Positions 3,788-61,343 of a stretch of DNA of 64,000 nucleotides are shown in pieces. The DNA is taken from assembly GCA_964016885.1 (NCBI GenBank), contig OZ024751.1, positions 44,578,001 to 44,642,000 on the forward strand, read 5' to 3'. Both the position numbers and the translations under genes were made by a program. The notes beneath the pieces are model-generated. The model saw only the letters and a program-made list of their open reading frames with translations, was not told the origin of the DNA and searched no databases. Numbering within the stretch: position 1 is the first letter of the stretch; each line of letters opens with the position of its first letter. The stretch comes from Eledone cirrhosa (taxonomy: Eukaryota).

Positions 3788-3790
<3 letters not shown>
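3309..3790 (-). mobile_element. 3' fragment of an RLE-type non-LTR retrotransposon (HERO/NeSL-like), between (TA)n tracts
   Basis: Minus strand reads YPSVIGVRGY...LLRGLGLATKEKKYLLRTLSE and, after a frameshift, ASEKASPYIWHKREEE*. This resembles the C-terminal end of HERO-type restriction-like endonuclease domains (PVEVG.RG...LSEAAEKAS..IW.KR). A GC-rich putative 3' UTR follows. The left boundary is uncertain. Confidence 0.6.
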
Positions 3791-3864
<74 letters not shown>

Positions 3865-3873
3865 AATATAGAT

Positions 3874-3926
3874 GAGATTCTACAGGACTAGAACTGTTTC
3901 ACTCTTTAGAAATCATCAGGAATCTC
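3874..3926 (-). ncRNA. type I hammerhead ribozyme motif
   Basis: Minus strand: gagattc-CTGATGA-tttctaaagagt-GAAA-cag-ttctagtc-ctg-TA-gaatctc. Intact core, 7-bp stem I, 4-bp stem III, GUA cleavage triplet, weak stem II. Confidence 0.75.
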
Positions 3927-3927
3927 A

Positions 3928-3980
3928 GGGATTCCTGATGATTTCTAAAGAATGAAACAGTTCTAGTCCTGTAGAATCTC
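3928..3980 (+). ncRNA. type I hammerhead ribozyme motif
   Basis: gggattc-CTGATGA-tttctaaagaat-GAAA-cag-ttctagtc-ctg-TA-gaatctc. Stem I 7 bp (one G-U), stem II ttc/gaa, predicted cleavage after 3973. Confidence 0.8.
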
Positions 3981-4061
3981 ATCTATATTAAAACTTTTAT
4001 ACTCTGCAATGTATTGAGTACCTTACTTACTGTGGTTACCTCCGATTCAACCCGGAATAAC

Positions 4062-4120
<59 letters not shown>

Positions 4121-4126
4121 CATATA

Positions 4127-4256
<130 letters not shown>

Positions 4257-4337
4257 CATATATATATATATACACAAACAACAAAACACATACATCCATA
4301 TATATATATATATATATATATGCATACATACATACAT

Positions 4338-5934: not shown

Positions 5935-7300
5935 CACATGCACAACACATATACATGGACACACATATACATGGAGACACATATACATGGACACACATAC
6001 TCACACACACCACACATATGCATGGACACACATATACATGGACACACATATACATGGAGACACATACTCACACACCACACATATACATGGACACACATAT
6101 ACATGAACACACATATACATGAACACACATATACATGGATACACATATACATGGACACCCATATACATGGACACACATATACATGGACACACATATACAT
6201 GAACACACATATACATGGACACCCATATACATGGATACACATATACATGGACACATATATACATGGACACACATATACATGGAGACACATACTCACACAC
6301 CACACATATACATGGACACACATATACATGAACACACATATACATGAACACACATATACATGGATACACATATACATGGACACCCATATACATGGACACA
6401 CATATACATGGACACACATATACATGAACACACATATACATGGACACCCATATACATGGATACACATATACATGGACACATATATACATGGACACACATA
6501 TACATAGACACACATATACATGGACACCCATATACATGGACACACATATACATGGACACACATATACATGAACACATATATACATGGACACACATATAAG
6601 TGGACACCCATATACATGGACACACATATACATGGATACACATATACATGGACACACATATACATGGACACCCATATACATGGACACCCATATACATGGA
6701 CACATATATACATGGATACACATATACATGGACACACATATACATGCACAACACATATACATGGACACATATATACATGGACACACATATACATGGACAC
6801 ACATATACATGCATACACATATACAAGGGCACATATATACATGGACACACATATACATGCACAACACATATACATGGACACACATATACATGGACACACA
6901 TATACATGCACAACACATATACATGGACACACATATACATGGACACACATATACATGCACAACACATATACATGGACACACATATACATGGATACACATA
7001 TACATAGACACCCATATACATGGACACCCATATACATGGACACCCATATACATGGACACATATATACATGGACACACATATATATGGACACCCATATACA
7101 TGGACACATATATACATGGACACACATATACATGGACACACATATACATGCACAACACATATACATGGACACATATATACATGGACACACATATACATGC
7201 ACAACACATATACATGGACACACATATACATGGACACACATATACATGCACAACACATATACATGGGCACACATATACATGGACACACATATTCACACAC
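5935..7300. repeat. 16-bp minisatellite GGACACACATATACAT
   Basis: Long tandem array with variants (GCACA, GAACA, CCCAT); source of the MDTHIHGHTYTW ORFs. Confidence 0.95.
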
Positions 7301-7640
7301 CACGCATTGCACACATTTTACATAAGAAATATGTTGTCTATTTTTGTAACATTTTTATGTATCTATCTCTGTTTTGTTTCTTGTCGAATGTCACACGAGA
7401 ATTTTTCTGTCCATTCTTTGTTTTCTTATCCTCATACATGCATCTTACCATCAACAGGTTCTTCAATCTATTGGGAAAACTGGCTTTACAATTGAAATAT
7501 CACATTAATGCACGAAATTGCATGCTGACAGGGTGGCTGATGAGGAAAAGACGTGATAATTTGTTCGTCTTATCTCTTCTAGTGTGGATATTCCGATGCA
7601 TACATACATGCGATGGGGTGAAAAGGCTGGAGTCCCTGAA

Positions 7641-7641
7641 T

Positions 7642-7674
<33 letters not shown>

Positions 7675-7694
7675 TTACTACTACTACTACTACT

Positions 7695-7772
<78 letters not shown>
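7641..7772. repeat. (CTA)n microsatellite
   Basis: Near-pure CTA run. Confidence 0.95.
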
Positions 7773-7779
7773 GATCATG

Positions 7780-7866
7780 GTTTGTCATTTAGGTACAAGG
7801 CCAACAATTTTGGTGGGAGGAGAAAGTCGGTTAAATCGACCCAGCACATTACTGGTACTTTATTTT
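7780..7866 (-). mobile_element. 3' fragment of tRNA-derived SINE
   Basis: aggtacaaggccaacaatttt...ttactggtactttatttt matches the reverse complement of the SINE 3' half seen throughout the window. Confidence 0.75.
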
Positions 7867-7869
7867 AAA

Positions 7870-9210
7870 AATATAACATCCCTTCACCCGAAACTGACAA
7901 CCATGTTCAATCACTGCTTGATGTCAGGTGAGGTACCAGAGTGGTTGACAAAAGGTACCACAGTTCTGGTAATGAAAGACCGAATCAATGGTAATGATGT
8001 TACTAACTATAGACCTATCACATGTCTGTCCGTAATGTGGAAACTGTTGACAAGCATTGTGTCTGAGGAAATCTACCATCACCTCCACACAAACAACTTG
8101 TTACCGCACGAACAGAAAGGATGCCGAAAGAAGTCCCGTGGTACAAATGACCAGTTACTTATTGATAAGATGGTAATGAGGAATTGCAAGAGGAGACACA
8201 CTGGTCTTGCCATGGGATGGATAGACTACAAAAAGGCATTTGACATGGTGCCTCATTCTTGGATCATCAAAAGCCTAGAGATCTTCAAGGTGGAAGATAA
8301 CATCAGACAGTTGTTGAGCAAAAGTATGAAGTCCTGGAAAACAGGGTTAACATCAGCTGGAGAATCCTTGGAAGGCGTGAAGATCAAGAGAGGTATCTTC
8401 CAGGGAGATAGTCTGTCCTCTCTGTTGTTTGTCCTTGCCCTGATGCCCCTGACCATTATACTGCGAAAAGTGAGAGTAGGATACAAGTTGGGAAAGGGAG
8501 AGCTTACCATCAATCACCTCCTCTTCATGGACGATCTTAAGCTCTTCGGGAAGAGTGAGAAGGAGTTGGATGTGCTTGTTGACACTGTCCGTATTTTCAG
8601 CAATGATATATGTATGCAATTTGGTATTAGTAAGTGTGGAGTCCTTGTGATGAAGAGGGGTAAATTGAGCAGAAGCAACGGAATCCAGGTACCAACAGGT
8701 GAGATGATAAAGGAAATTGACACTGAAGAAGGATACAAGTATTTGGGTGTTCTGGAGGCTGATGACATCAAGAACAAAAAAATGAAGGAATTGATAACAT
8801 CTGAATACATTCGGAGAGTAAGGAGCGTATTAAAGCCACATCTGAACAGTAGGAATGCCATAAGTGCAGTAAATTCCCGAGCTGTGTCTATTATTAGGTA
8901 CAGTGCGGGAATTCTGAGATGGAATGTTGCTGAACAAAAAGAAATGGATAGGAAGACTAGGAAGCTATTGACTATCTACAACATGTTCCACAAGAGGAGT
9001 GATGTCGATAGACTCTACTTAAGGAGATCTGAAGGTGGAAGAGGTCTTATCAGCATAGAGGACTGTGTTCAGATGGAGAAAAACAACCTACACAAATACG
9101 TGACTGATAGTAAGGAGCCAATGTTCAGAATTGTACTGAAGGAGAGGACAATAGACCAGGGGATGTCCAAGGAAGAAATAACAACGAGGAGAAAGAACAG
9201 CCTTAAATGA
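7870..9210 (+). pseudogene. reverse transcriptase domain of the R4/Dong-like element (real part of ORF 6520..9210)
   Basis: Only the C-terminal ~445 aa of the 896-aa ORF is RT; no own start codon; premature stop/frameshift near 9200. Confidence 0.88.
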
Positions 9211-11496: not shown

Positions 11497-11560
11497 AACA
11501 CCTGAAGAAATTGCCCATGATCGGATGATGAAACTGGGCCATTGAAATACGTATAGTGTT
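11497..11560 (+). ncRNA. type I hammerhead ribozyme motif with palindromic stem III
   Basis: aacac-CTGAAGA-aattgccca-(17 nt)-tgggccatt-GAAA-tacgta-TA-gtgtt. Stem I 5/5, stem II 8/9, ATACGTAT palindrome, AUA cleavage triplet. Confidence 0.8.
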
Positions 11561-12426: not shown

Positions 12427-12427
<1 letters not shown>

Positions 12428-12618
12428 TTATTCCGGGTTCAATCGGGGGTAACCACAGTAAGTAAGGTACTCAATACATAGCAGAGTATAAATGTTTTAA
12501 TATTGAAAAGCTGCTACAGGTCTAGAACTGTTTCATTCGTGAGAAATCATCAGGAGCTTCCTGGTGATTTCCCACGAATGAAACAGTTCTAGTCCTGTAG
12601 AAGCTTTTCTATATTAAT
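12427..12618. mobile_element. palindromic double-hammerhead element (copy 2, opposite orientation to copy 1)
   Basis: Same unique arm and hairpin. The minus-strand motif 12508-12559 has intact CTGATGA/GAAA/GTA. The plus-strand motif 12555-12605 has CTGGTGA with perfect stem I agcttc/gaagct. Confidence 0.85.
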
Positions 12619-18279: not shown

Positions 18280-21200
18280 CTACAGGCTGATATAGAGAGA
18301 AGGCCCATTCACTCGGGCCATTCTCGCCACTTTCACCCACCTTTCATAAAACTTGCTGGGGTAGAGCACCTCTCTCTCCATTCTGATCCTTCTTCTAAAG
18401 TGGTACTTGAAAAAAAAGACCAGTTGTTGGCCGGAGAGAAAGGTGTCTGTCCTCAGCCCTTTCAACCTTGTCCACCATACAACTTCTTTCGCCATAGCTA
18501 TCACACAGAGGAAAACCACCTCTCCTTCGTTTTTGAAAGGGGAAGGTGGTTTGATCGTGACAATGTTCTCGGTGGTCAACCGGATTGGTCCCACCCGCGA
18601 CAGTAATCGTTCCACATAGCCCCGCAGGTCAGCAACGCCCGGGCACTGTACGAATGCGTGTGCGACGGTTTCCTCGTCACGCACGCATCTCGGACAGATT
18701 TTCTTCGAGGGGTCCCTACCCGGACGCCCGTGTCTGTAGAGCTTGTCCCGAACGGGTAGAGCTCCTCGGTAACATTGCCAAGCCAGGGACTTTTGGAAGT
18801 TGTCCATCGGTCCCGGGCGGAAGGTCCTACCGAACAGACTGGCCAGCTCATCTTCCTCCATGCCCAGAGCGTCGTCGCACTTACTGCGCACCAACCCTCT
18901 ATAGAATGTTGAGGTTGAGTCTCCACTGATTGCCGGATCCGCTTGCCAGAGGGCCGTGAGCGCCTGGGCACATTCAATGTGCCAGTCGCCCACTTTTCTC
19001 GGTCTTTGCTTGACCCAGGATTGCAGCTCGGTGAGTGAGACGAGTCTCGGAAAGGCTCGCCTCACAAACAGGGCCCACACCGGCTGACCGGTGAAGAATA
19101 CCTGGAGGTGCCGTAGCCTTAATGCGTGTCTACGCATCGTCAGCCACGGCAACCCCAGCCCTCCGTCCGAAGGGTGTTGACAGAGATGGATCTTCTCACC
19201 AAAGGAGCCCGCTTCTTCCAAAGAAATCGGAAGAGCGCGTGCTCCATTTTGGCGAGTGTTTTCTCTGCGCAAGGCACGACGGTCAAGCGGTAGTAGATGA
19301 CGGACGCTATATAAACGTTCGCCGCCTCCGCTCGACCTTTCAGGGATAGTTTGCACTTGGCCCACTTCTGGGCGAGTGCAAACACCTTTCCCGTTACCTC
19401 ATCCCAGTTTTTCTCCACCTGGAGGTCCGGTCCGAACCAGACCCCGAGCAGCTTCACCGGTCTCTCCGTCCAGCGTCCGACGATGCCGTCGGAGGGCATC
19501 GTTTTGCCCCTCCACGTCCCGAGTTGCAAACCGACGGACTTGTCCCGGTTCAGCTTGGCTCCTGTGAAACTTTCATATTCCTCCAGTAAGGTGCCGATCT
19601 GCCCGATATCCGAGGCGCACGACACCATTACTGTCATGTCATCGGCGTAGGCCGACACCGCTTTCCGCAATCCCGGTTCCAAGGGGATGCCCTGCAACAG
19701 CTCCAGCTTCAGCAGTAGTGGCTCGAGAGCCAGCACATACAGGAGGGAGGAGAGAGGGCATCCCTGTCGGATGGATCGCGTGATTTGGAACGGCTCCGAG
19801 AGGTAGCCGTTCACCTTGACCCTCGAGCAGGTGTTGCTGCTGTGCATTGCAGCAATCCAGCCCCTGAAAACGAGTCCGAAGCCTGCCGCCGCGAGCACCG
19901 TATCCAGGTACCGATGATCAACCCTATCGAACGCCTTAGATTGATCCAAGTTGATCAGGGCCCCACCAAAGCCGGGTTCGTTCCCTACCCTCTCTACGAT
20001 GTATCGCATGAGGTGGAGGTTGTCGTGTATAGACCTGGACGGGATTGCGCATATCTGCGCTTCTCCCACCAGGTTCCCGACGACAAGCGCCAACCTCTTC
20101 GTTAACACCTTGGCCAAAATCTTTGTTTTGCAGAGCTATGGGCCTGAAGTTATCTATGTCATCCCCCTTGTTCTCGTCCTTCCTCACCAGCGTGACTACG
20201 CCCTTGGTCACAGAACTGGAAATTCTCCCGTTCTGTTGCCAGTTGCAGTAGACCGCCTTGAGGAGACCGGAGAACAAGACCGGCATCGCTACATAAAGTT
20301 CGTATGGTAGACCATCGAGACCCGGAGATTTGCGTTTGCCGCATTGGCTCAGCGCTTCCCCTATTTCAGCGGCTGAAATCGGCCTCTCGTAGGACTTCGC
20401 CTCCCCGTCCGAGAGCCGCGCCACACCGTTGAGGTATGGACCGAAATCCATGGCCCCACCCGGCCCGCCGCCCCTCCCGAACATTCGTGCAAAGCGCCGT
20501 TGAAAGGCCGCGCTCATCCGCTCAGGTTCAAGGATCACGCGTCCATCCTGGTCCTTCAACGACCGAATCGTGGACTTGTTTCCACTTTTTGCCTCTGTCA
20601 CTCGGGCCCAGCTAACAGCTTTGGCTCCCTCGTTACCCAGAGCACGTATTTTACTCCTGACAACGCAGCCCTCGTGCTTCGCATAAAAGAACTGGTCTAG
20701 GGCCGTTCTTGACGCCAGCACGCCGGCCACGTTGCCACTCCTAATCGCCTCTTCTACTCTATTTGTTAATTCCCTTTCAGTTCTATTCCTATCTGATGCT
20801 AATTCCCGACTAAAACCTATTCTATTCTAATTTCTCTCTTGAGAGAGCCCCACCACCTGCTGTTGACAATTGCCCCCGTCAAACGCTGCTTAACTAGTGT
20901 GCTAATCCGCTAACTGTAAGCATTGTTTGTCGGTAAAGACAAGTTTAGCTTCCAGTAACCGGGTCCCTGTCTATGATTTCTATCAAGGTTGACCACTCCG
21001 GTCACCAACTTGTGATCCGAATAGTCAACCATGAACATTCGTGGACAGCGTAATATGTCCCTATCCTTATTTCTAACTAGGAATCAATCTAGGTACGACC
21101 TAGGTGTTTCGCTGAGATTAGTCCACGTCCACAGTGGCACAGTCGGAAAATCTAGTCGATATCTATCGGCCAGATCAAATCGGCCGATTAATCGTTTGAG

Positions 21201-21685
21201 GCTGTTACACCCCCTCTATCGGGACATGCCCCTACATAGTCCCAACGTGCATCCAGGATACCATTCCAGTCCTCCACTAAAAGCAAGGAGCGAGACGTTC
21301 CCAGGAAATTCTCCAGGCGTCGGAAGAAGTCCGGTCGCGGTGTCCCAGATGGGGCATACGCTGCCACCAGCCTGAAAGCCCCACCTTCACCACTGCCGAC
21401 GTCTAAAACCACCAGTCGACCCTCCGGGTCCAGGTGTACCTTCTGTGTGGAAAGACCCAGGTATTTTCGCAGCAGAACGACAACCCCACCCCTCGGCTGA
21501 CAGAGAGATGCGTAGATCTCAAAGTCGTCGAAGATGGGGGCCAGTTGGCGCTCGCTGCTGATCCTGAACTCGCAAATAACCATTACATCCACTCTGTGCG
21601 ACCTGAGGTCATTTAAGAGTTTGCCCTGTTTCCAGGACATCCCCAGGCCGCGTGAATTCACACATCCAACTCTTATATTGGCCAT
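18280..21685 (-). pseudogene. Tx1-like ORF2 (APE endonuclease-RT-zinc finger), frameshifted
   Basis: MANIRVGCVNSRGL, GRLVVLDV, YAPS, DWN, SDH (EN); KSPGLDGLPYE, NFRPI, LDQSKAFDRVDH, QGCPLS, AYADD (RT); CPRC..EETVAHAFVQC. Split over ORFs 21188-21685, 19936-20730, 19140-20117 and 18280-19365. Confidence 0.92.
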
Positions 21686-21741
21686 ATTGGTGCTGAAGAG
21701 TTAAAAGGAAGAGGAAAGGAAATTACTTACCTCTTCGTCTC

Positions 21742-25102: not shown

Positions 25103-25192
25103 GTTTAAGCAAAGAATCGCTGCCTTTATATCTTATGTATATATATATATATATATACATAAGATATAAAGGCAGCGATTCTTTGCTTAAAC
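25103..25192. repeat. perfect palindrome centred on (TA)n
   Basis: agtttaagcaaagaatcgctgcctttatatcttatg-(TA)n-cataagatataaaggcagcgattctttgcttaaact. Confidence 0.9.
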
Positions 25193-29157: not shown

Positions 29158-29365
29158 AAATTAGAAATAGAAACTTTCGCCGTATTTTTTGACTTAAGAA
29201 AATTTCAGCCCGACAGTGGGGTTTAGAACCCTCTAAGAAATGGATAAAGATGAGTATTGATCTTCAATACTCATTTTTACCATTTCTTAGAGGGTTCTAA
29301 ATCCCATTATCAGGCTGAAATTTTCTTAAGTAAAAAAATACGGCGAATGCTTCTATTTTTAATTT
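29158..29365. mobile_element. ~210-bp hairpin (fold-back) dispersed repeat, copy 1
   Basis: About 100-bp inverted arms around gagtattga-tct-tcaatactc; second copy at 60152-60399. Confidence 0.8.
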
Positions 29366-31744: not shown

Positions 31745-32188
31745 GTTTCTTCAATTGGCACAAGGCCAGCAATCACCCCAGTGCATTACTGGTACTTTAT
31801 TTCATCGACCCCGTAAGGATGAAAGGCAAAGTTAACCTCGGCGGGATTTGAACTCAGAATGGCAAGGGCCGTAACTCTATGCATCAAAGCATGGCCTCCG
31901 ACTCTCTACCGATACTGCCAACCCACCACATATATATATATATATATATATGTATATGTATATATGTATATATATATGTATATATGTATATATATATATA
32001 TATATGGTGGGTTGGCAGTATCGGTAGAGGGTCGGAGGCCATGCTTTGATGCATAGAGTTACGGCCCTTGCCATTCTGAGTTCAAATCCCGCCGAGGTTA
32101 ACTTTGCCTTTCATCCTTACGGGGTCGATAAAATAAAGTACCAGTAATGCACTGGGGTGATTGCTGGCCTTGTGCCAAAAGTAGAAAC

Positions 32189-38300: not shown

Positions 38301-38493
38301 AGTTTATCCCGTGTTCAATCGGGGGTAACCACAGTAATTAAGGTACTCAATGCAAAGTAGAGTATAAATATTCAATATAGAATGGTGTCTACAGTTCTAC
38401 AGGACTAGAACTGTTTCATTCTGGACAGTCGGCTTCCTGGTGTTTTTTTCCTGAATGAAACAGTTCTAGTCCTGTAGAAGCCATTTCTATATT
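38301..38493. mobile_element. palindromic hammerhead element (copy 3, decayed)
   Basis: Same unique arm. Plus motif 38431-38482 keeps stem I ggcttc/gaagcc and GAAAcag...ctgTA, but the core reads CTGGTGT. Confidence 0.8.
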
Positions 38494-38503
38494 ATATATA
38501 CAG

Positions 38504-45664: not shown

Positions 45665-45731
45665 TCTGTGTGTCTGTGTGTAGATGTATATATATATATA
45701 TACATATATATGTGTATATATATTTATTTAT

Positions 45732-45790
45732 TATAGAAGTGACTTCCACAGGACTAGAAATGTTTCATTTGTTTGAAATCATCAGGAATA
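45732..45790 (-). mobile_element. single-arm remnant of the hammerhead element
   Basis: Minus: attc-CTGATGA-tttcaaacaaat-GAAA-cat-ttctagtc-ctg-TG-gaag; cleavage triplet lost. The unique-arm remnant of the family also occurs at 61252-61283. Confidence 0.65.
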
Positions 45791-61230: not shown

Positions 61231-61281
61231 ATGTGTGTGTGTGTGTGTGTGTGTGGTTACGTCCGATTCAACCCAGAATAA

Positions 61282-61343
<62 letters not shown>

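Follow-up and report, generated by a model that had tools for sequence, protein, structure and literature searches.

Avsunviroidae such as PLMVd carry hammerhead ribozymes of both polarities paired within one hairpin; during RNA-RNA replication, each polarity is processed and is under selection. LINE-1 twin priming starts another cDNA at an internal position of the RNA already being copied, with the second target strand as primer; microhomology then joins the two cDNAs, and the sequence is inverted but not duplicated.

For Penelope-like elements (PLEs), an inverted 5' copy, a one-sided tail and (TA)n targeting have been described in the accessible text of Craig et al. 2021 (PMC8557442). The same text lists the Hydra-clade element Penelope-13_HM with a hammerhead on both strands and the U-flanked, short form of stem II for many Hydra elements, and it names tandem and inverted PLE insertion, together with microsatellite targeting, as an open task. 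Frangieh et al. 2024 (PMC11167929) reconstituted PAc (Poseidon from Anolis) in vitro; in the accessible sections of their report, both target strands were cleaved and extended, reverse transcription began at two internal sites on either side of the tail, and RNA that had not been cut was the main substrate. The hammerheads of PLEs have low, dimer-dependent activity, and dual motifs on opposite strands, 100-700 bp apart, were ascribed to truncated PLEs in the accessible part of Cervera and de la Pena 2014 (PMC4209133). Retrozymes are defined as tandem PLE derivatives in the available text of Li et al. 2026 (bioRxiv 10.64898/2026.07.22.740005).

Here we analysed a hairpin in a 64-kb stretch of Eledone cirrhosa DNA; this whole stretch is called the window. 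An earlier note had read the hairpin as a non-autonomous, ambisense ribozyme retroelement. Our results indicate instead the 5' end of a PLE transcription unit joined to an inverted duplicate of itself made at insertion, and the PLMVd-like second ribozyme that the note placed on the minus strand is the same sequence inverted, not a separate ribozyme.

Results

Structure of the hairpin and its copies in the window

The hairpin reported by the note was recovered as one stem at 3861-3993, with computed folding energies of -112 kcal/mol for one strand and -118 kcal/mol for the other. Scanning the 64 kb with a descriptor recovered the expected plus-strand type I hammerhead motif at 3928-3980 (stem I of 7 bp, stem III of 4 bp, core at 3935-3941, predicted cut after 3973) and its minus-strand counterpart at 3927-3873 (stem I of 8 bp, predicted cut 3881), which is an inverted duplicate of the plus motif. 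The third descriptor match, at position 11497, was weak and unrelated. The plus motif has a palindromic loop III and the Hydra-type, short stem II, which is only 3 bp long, is flanked by U.U and has no G10.1-C11.1 pair. The outermost stem I pairs of this copy are junction bases, and stem I of the source element is 6 bp. An Rfam scan focused on the hairpin returned Hammerhead_3 alone (14.3 bits, E 0.71), below the gathering score of 48.5; for the whole window, the best 150 of 646 Rfam matches were all driven by the hairpin or by microsatellites, and nearly all were to miRNA families.

We numbered the source unit from the A of AGATTCC (+1), which places the TATA box at -30, the predicted cut after +45, and two terminus sites, A and B, at about +66 and at +133. 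From left to right, the locus comprises a (TA)n target run read directly from the sequence (3790-3860); the short, or A, arm on the minus strand, an inverted copy of +1 to +65 of the PLE transcription unit that ends at the upstream terminus, site A (3861-3925); a head-to-head junction of four bases untemplated by the source element, possibly a cap-derived G plus a snap-back insert (3926-3929); the long, or B, arm on the plus strand, which represents +2 to +133 (3930-4061); and a (TA)n-rich target run on the right (4063-4270). The last 67 nt of the long arm (3995-4061, plus strand), which the note had called a unique arm, are the PLE tail that lies between the two termini and contains a 3' stem-loop. 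The (TA)n flanks that it described are thus present on both sides of this copy (copy 1).

Two further copies and two remnants had also been proposed, and all four are present, but two intact motifs occur in copy 1 alone, where both cores and both stems I are intact. Copy 2 (12427-12618, minus strand) belongs to an older subfamily, with its tail arm on the minus strand at 12427-12556 and its short arm on the plus strand at 12558-12618; its plus core reads CUGGUGA and its minus stem I is broken. Copy 3 (38302-38496, minus strand) is an older, decayed hairpin in which both cores are damaged. The remnants are part of a short arm (45727-45789, minus strand) and the 3' end of a tail (61252-61282, plus strand) that runs into (TA)n.

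Other repeats share the window. Near-perfect inverted repeats at 25105-25190 and 31830-32100 have their (TA)n run at the centre and not at the flanks, and the latter resembles a SINE-like repeat found elsewhere in the genome. A MITE-like, imperfect palindrome of about 200 bp (29162-29361) is unrelated to the hairpin family. Two LINE-type retrotransposon remnants (6508-9210, plus; 18280-21700, minus) gave Pfam matches to RVT_1 (E 9e-25 and 2e-21) and zf-RVT, and a weak endonuclease match.

The parent element

The note had suggested a link to PLEs, and the long arm establishes it: 129 of 132 positions are identical to the 5' pLTR of an intact, full-length PLE copy (L179) that encodes 712 aa, in the first 133 nt downstream of its TATA box. 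Almost certainly, the hairpin is an inverted end of the pLTR of a new PLE family of Hydra type. Among 30 loci picked by the tail motif only, eight carried a CCAAT box, a CACCC tract and a TATA box upstream of stem I. At locus L158, a microsatellite-rich UTR of about 2.5 kb connects the unit to the end of the GIY-YIG ORF, and a long inverted copy mirrors the whole; the protein linked to it has at least 150 genomic relatives, the best 150 of which are 96-100% identical in protein sequence. An open frame of 758 codons starting inside the hammerhead unit was present in 15 of 20 fetched stretches, and its first ATG, at +182, yields the 712-aa protein.

An AlphaFold model of this protein (pLDDT 93) had TERT as its closest fold match (E 1.5e-9). 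Pfam detected no RT domain in the protein, and a PDB sequence search (query A2) gave no match. YRDD was present in 117/117 aligned sequences, and the motifs that mark the Hydra clade were conserved throughout the same alignment: RWR (with K in 87/117 sequences), DKT in place of DKG, the CxCX5C linker, CxxC and CxH, with CCHH absent. The IVY..YIG motif is also present, and the Pfam GIY-YIG match in a C-terminal fragment was weak (E 0.0028, below cut-off). The element has the single ORF, TERT-like RT and C-terminal GIY-YIG of EN+ PLEs, as well as their partial tandem pLTR-ORF-pLTR arrangement, inverted 5' copy and tail at one end. As in the Hydra clade, the pLTR hammerhead lies in the sense of the ORF and the element sits in (TA)n, with (TA)4 or longer directly after the tail in 57 of 70 loci. 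Its pLTR-to-pLTR length of about 4.7-6.3 kb exceeds the tendency of that clade towards less than 3 kb. We place the family in the Hydra clade provisionally, by these motifs and not by a tree.

The top 30 GIY-YIG loci and the Neptune-type families were considered as parents and rejected, because matches to the unit there were independent insertions only. Several Neptune-type families (L143, L145, L146, L149, L153) combine long open frames, the longest of 1096 codons, with extensive inverted duplication of the ORF; a first look at GIY-YIG gave 10,595 candidates genome-wide. A direct tandem array of the parent family, at L187:1-2310 (G000:C1:83679806-83691700), consists of units of about 1.1 kb, each with promoter, hammerhead, tail and microsatellite, a retrozyme-like arrangement. 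Pattern matches in the genome were unevenly split between the strands (3902 vs 1688), suggesting that a far larger array exists elsewhere.

Copy number and age

The hairpin-centre pattern had 806 + 792 exact matches genome-wide, most loci being counted once per strand, and a 25-mer from the tail had 6635 + 6626 = 13,261. Reversed-pattern controls for both had no matches, which excludes a chance origin. The best 40 of 1566 candidate matches to the hairpin were 97-100% identical over about 200 bp. The hairpin family is large and young. Because short-read contigs from three other runs of two studies cross the hairpin centre (the closest run is possibly the assembly's own sample), the hairpin is not an assembly artefact. 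If the proportion of short hairpins among tail-bearing loci (27 of 70, from one chromosome end) is extrapolated to the 13,261 tail matches, about 5,000 short hairpins are estimated. The promoter is absent from them, and they are likely dead-end products. Two neighbouring hairpins, at L014:1937-2049, represent a subfamily that has an intact hammerhead core and stem III and no stem I pairing in either arm, possibly a ribozyme-dead lineage.

Insertions end at two different sites

We scored the ends at 70 loci picked by their tail, which were the first places listed on contig C1 with three already known hairpins left out, against a microsatellite-trimmed reference. An inverted arm adjoined the tailed one at 42 of them; none of these 42 arms carried a tail, and 38 ended at +60 to +75. 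We also took 20 divergent pairs from the first 100 listed places with the tail disregarded. One A and one B end were found in 18 of the 19 assessable pairs (p 4e-5); the exception was B/B (L301), and the remaining pair runs into the ORF and was unscored. The A end of L306 is at +52.

The same rule was seen in full-length copies. Where both ends were visible, six were A/B and one was a complex B/B (L172). In L174, L179 and L180 it is the long arm that ends at A and the short inverted arm that ends at B. Palindromes of all sizes, from 130 bp to about 7 kb, have these outer termini in common.

Hydra-type motifs also mark a second PLE family (L156:6128-8590, L141:549-694 and L078:4891-5708), whose hammerhead is different and has a long stem II. 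Its copies likewise occur head to head, a short end opposite a tailed one, and the pairs (L156) were A/B in 3/3 cases. At L288:1715 (minus), the short end of this second family and the tail end of the first share one (TA)n run, an arrangement of nested insertions in the same microsatellite.

The two arms and their junctions

Sequence variants in 70 young hairpins show how the arms are related. Three recurrent variants were mirrored in both arms in 20/20 cases, where independent templates would predict about 22 discordant copies at +21 alone. Private variants, in contrast, were mirrored in 0/35 cases. Together these results indicate that each insertion makes the second arm anew, from the template of the first. 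Such concordance would also follow from one dominant source locus per cell supplying two RNAs.

Either arm may extend further 5'. Among 23 young short copies, the tail-less arm was the longer at this end in four and the tailed arm in another four; among long pairs, the A arm reached further in L297, L300, L305 and L307 and the B arm in six loci, and in L307 the tail-less arm measures 435 nt vs 20 nt. The second arm is therefore not a simple fold-back of the first. One L1-like pair, with non-overlapping arms, was seen at L119.

Junctions were diverse: 61 scored copies that are otherwise 98-100% identical had 39 junction strings of about 36 types, and some contained templated inserts. In the commonest junctions, one cDNA end may have snapped back and been extended briefly before it paired with the other end over a 3-nt microhomology.

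The 5' start and the length of the hairpin

Tail arms began at -6 to +10 in 33 of 70 loci, and the 27 short hairpins mentioned above have both arms starting about 30 nt past the TATA box. Among the first 100 of 2,536 matches in which the base before +1 was not the templated C, 76 had a G there, as expected if a cap is copied. The extra G could also be templated from the 3' strand of stem I, to which it is complementary, and in another sample G-A preceded GATTCC in only 5 of 36 hairpin arms. We infer from these start positions that +1 may be the capped transcription start of the parent PLE.

Starts at the ribozyme site are rare; 2 of 36 young arms began at +41 to +50, around the predicted cut. 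In the L121:1500 region, a tailed arm begins exactly at that cut (+46) and the other arm is complete, a start that would fit a template already cleaved, or else a deletion that arose later between direct repeats. The haplotype of the window had 2,545 matches, and in a sample of 30 it occurred in 15 hairpins and eight promoter-bearing copies and ran into the ORF start in L278; thus, no hairpin-only lineage is needed. A sample of 47 arms with no promoter-bearing copy had suggested that this haplotype lacks such sources, an idea rejected on the unbiased sample of 30. The scarcity of starts at the predicted cut and the presence of this haplotype in copies that bear the promoter or run into the ORF together support an uncut template.

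The hammerhead motif

We aligned 19 arms picked by hand for an intact core. Stem III was invariant, the core was nearly so, and loop II was variable. The covariation in stem I that the note had cited is real (9 double-change cells; 0/500 shuffles were as high, although relatedness of the copies inflates this figure), but it reflects the evolution of parent PLE subfamilies. Conservation of the core and stem III, together with the double changes in stem I, supports a conserved hammerhead in the parent.

The motif has the type I elements CUGANGA, GAAA and UH with stems I-III, and has neither a G10.1-C11.1 pair nor a stable stem II. As a monomer, its computed hammerhead fold is at -5.3 kcal/mol vs a minimum of -5.6 kcal/mol; cofolding as a dimer gives a predicted double hammerhead, held together by the palindromic loop III, at -21.2 kcal/mol. 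In modelled read-through RNA of either strand, in which the antisense arm comes first, the pair probability of stems I and III was 0.0. This agrees with the suggestion that the long hairpin competes with the ribozyme fold, and both hammerheads are predicted to be masked in such RNA. The probability was also 0.0 in the folded 5' end of the mRNA, where ViennaRNA likewise disfavours the hammerhead. The hammerhead of the parent mRNA is likely a weak ribozyme, assisted by dimerization or by protein.

Discussion

Mechanism of insertion

We consider twin priming at two internal sites on one uncut RNA to be the most likely mechanism, and a probable one. The enzyme of the active parent PLE would cut both strands of a (TA)n site, and each target strand would prime reverse transcription at one of the two sites (about +66 and +133) on the same uncut mRNA. 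This twin priming would be carried out by an enzyme dimer, with strand displacement. Both cDNAs would run to the 5' end of the RNA and their ends be joined head to head through snap-back synthesis and pairing at microhomologies. The 200-bp hairpin would result when priming falls in the cap-proximal pLTR, and long palindromes or full elements when it falls in a downstream pLTR.

We also lean, more guardedly, towards a general form of this mechanism, in which PLE integration is an obligate, asymmetric twin priming by a dimeric RT-endonuclease on the same capped, uncut mRNA. Both the one-sided tail and the inverted 5' copy would follow from it. Where priming falls in the cap-proximal pLTR, it would scatter near-perfect hairpins of 130 bp through the genome by the thousand, each without a promoter and each a ready source of dsRNA and substrate for editing.

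Alternative explanations

A single cDNA with the same PLE origin could instead snap back at its 3' end and serve as its own template, with synthesis stopping near +66 on reaching the opposite target end. The perfect mirroring of shared variants is what this fold-back would produce; fully palindromic and spacer-free junctions do occur, a few junctions (ATTC twice, GAATC) fit simple fold-back, and one rare variant is mirrored in L024. We nevertheless find fold-back unlikely, because the tail-less arm lies further 5' in 4/23 young short copies and four long pairs, by up to about 415 nt (L307), because the arm lengths and sites are exchanged in the three full-length copies noted above, and because no private variant was mirrored. 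Far less probable still is a MITE-like or other DNA foldback element, or a symmetric insertion whose centre was later edited by cruciform break repair. The repeats are non-terminal, an RT-encoding element has this sequence as its UTR, and palindromes of very different length have two identical outer termini, all of which oppose an origin of this kind, even though the TA-rich flanks and long inverted repeat are suggestive of it and the variation at the centre resembles palindrome repair.

The remaining alternative is closest to the earlier reading: a self-propagating, non-autonomous ambisense retrozyme, mobilised by a PLE, whose two hammerheads process plus and minus RNAs that may be circular. 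About 800 young, near-identical hairpins exist, they form a large share of the family, and some junctions recur (the window type in 9/61 copies, a sample biased by the query). Against this, the promoter lies outside the hairpin, both hammerhead folds are predicted to be buried in read-through RNA, the junctions vary among copies that are otherwise near-identical (about 36 types in 61 copies), no one-arm variant is widely shared, and each hairpin haplotype checked was also found in promoter-bearing copies. Nor does the hairpin fit the processing of both polarities to a unit-length circle that defines ambisense viroid-like agents: each strand has a single cut site, so no monomer circle is possible, and the folds are predicted to be masked. 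We regard such a retrozyme as very improbable and retain twin priming by a PLE.

Implications

The thousands of hairpin copies likely record the PLE insertion route. A very young, high-copy family yields a genomic rule (ends at +66 and +133, one haplotype for both arms, and either arm further 5'), and with its intact 712-aa protein this rule can be tested in an assay of the kind set up for PAc. A caution for animal genomes is that ambisense hammerhead hairpins can be by-products of insertion and not viroid-like replicons. The short hairpins could also raise the load of dsRNA and of A-to-I editing; the accessible text of Porath et al. 2017 (PMC5625713) ties palindromic repeats to hyper-editing and names one of 200 bp as the frog repeat with the most editing.

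Comparison with known systems

The note had allowed that the hairpin might match an already described Penelope pLTR inversion. It is such an inversion in kind, without an exact database match. Our searches of the literature on PLE twin priming and head-to-head insertion and on octopus and cephalopod hammerheads and palindromes, made without most subscription journals and Repbase, did not find this PLE family, the short hairpin class or the A/B end rule described. Mass-produced 200-bp hairpins were likewise not found described for Hydra-clade PLEs in the accessible text of PMC8557442.

By that text, Hydra-clade PLEs (Penelope-13_HM, Penelope-1_NV, Hydra-1_Obim) resemble the Eledone element in RW(K/R), DKT, the CxCX5C linker, the lack of CCHH, CxxC and CxH, and likewise in (TA)n targets, a type I hammerhead in the sense of the pLTR, the U-flanked short stem II and the inverted 5' copy. 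The hammerhead of Hydra-1_Obim differs from that of the Eledone PLE, which makes the latter a separate family. The Eledone PLE, at about 5-6 kb because of its microsatellite-rich 3' UTR, is also longer than the described Hydra elements, generally <3 kb, and its tail measures 67 nt vs the usual 30-40 (PMC8557442).

The minimal PLE hammerheads reported in the accessible part of PMC4209133 are alike in being type I motifs in pLTRs with a short helix I, an extra base after A9 and a palindromic loop III suited to dimers. The Eledone motif differs in its 4-bp stem III with an 8-nt loop, its 3-bp stem II, its lack of G10.1-C11.1, and the fact that the two motifs abut. Non-LTR retrozymes, as the available texts of PMC7229834 and bioRxiv 10.64898/2026.07.22.740005 present them, are similarly short, non-coding, PLE-derived and equipped with a type I hammerhead. 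In the latter source, however, their direct tandem units, each with a hammerhead, can release a monomer circle, whereas in the hairpin the two units are inverted and each strand has a single site.

Unlike in Avsunviroidae, the second hammerhead copy of the hairpin is a duplication made at DNA insertion, and unlike in LINE-1 twin priming, both cDNAs would reach the 5' end, giving a palindrome. PAc shares with the Eledone PLE the cutting and extension of both strands, AT-rich targets, two internal RT starts, an uncut RNA template and a predicted dimer (PMC11167929). PAc belongs to a different clade, and in the accessible sections of that report its start sites did not differ between strands and inverted copies are unexplained; in the Eledone PLE, by contrast, the two ends of one insertion lie at different sites.
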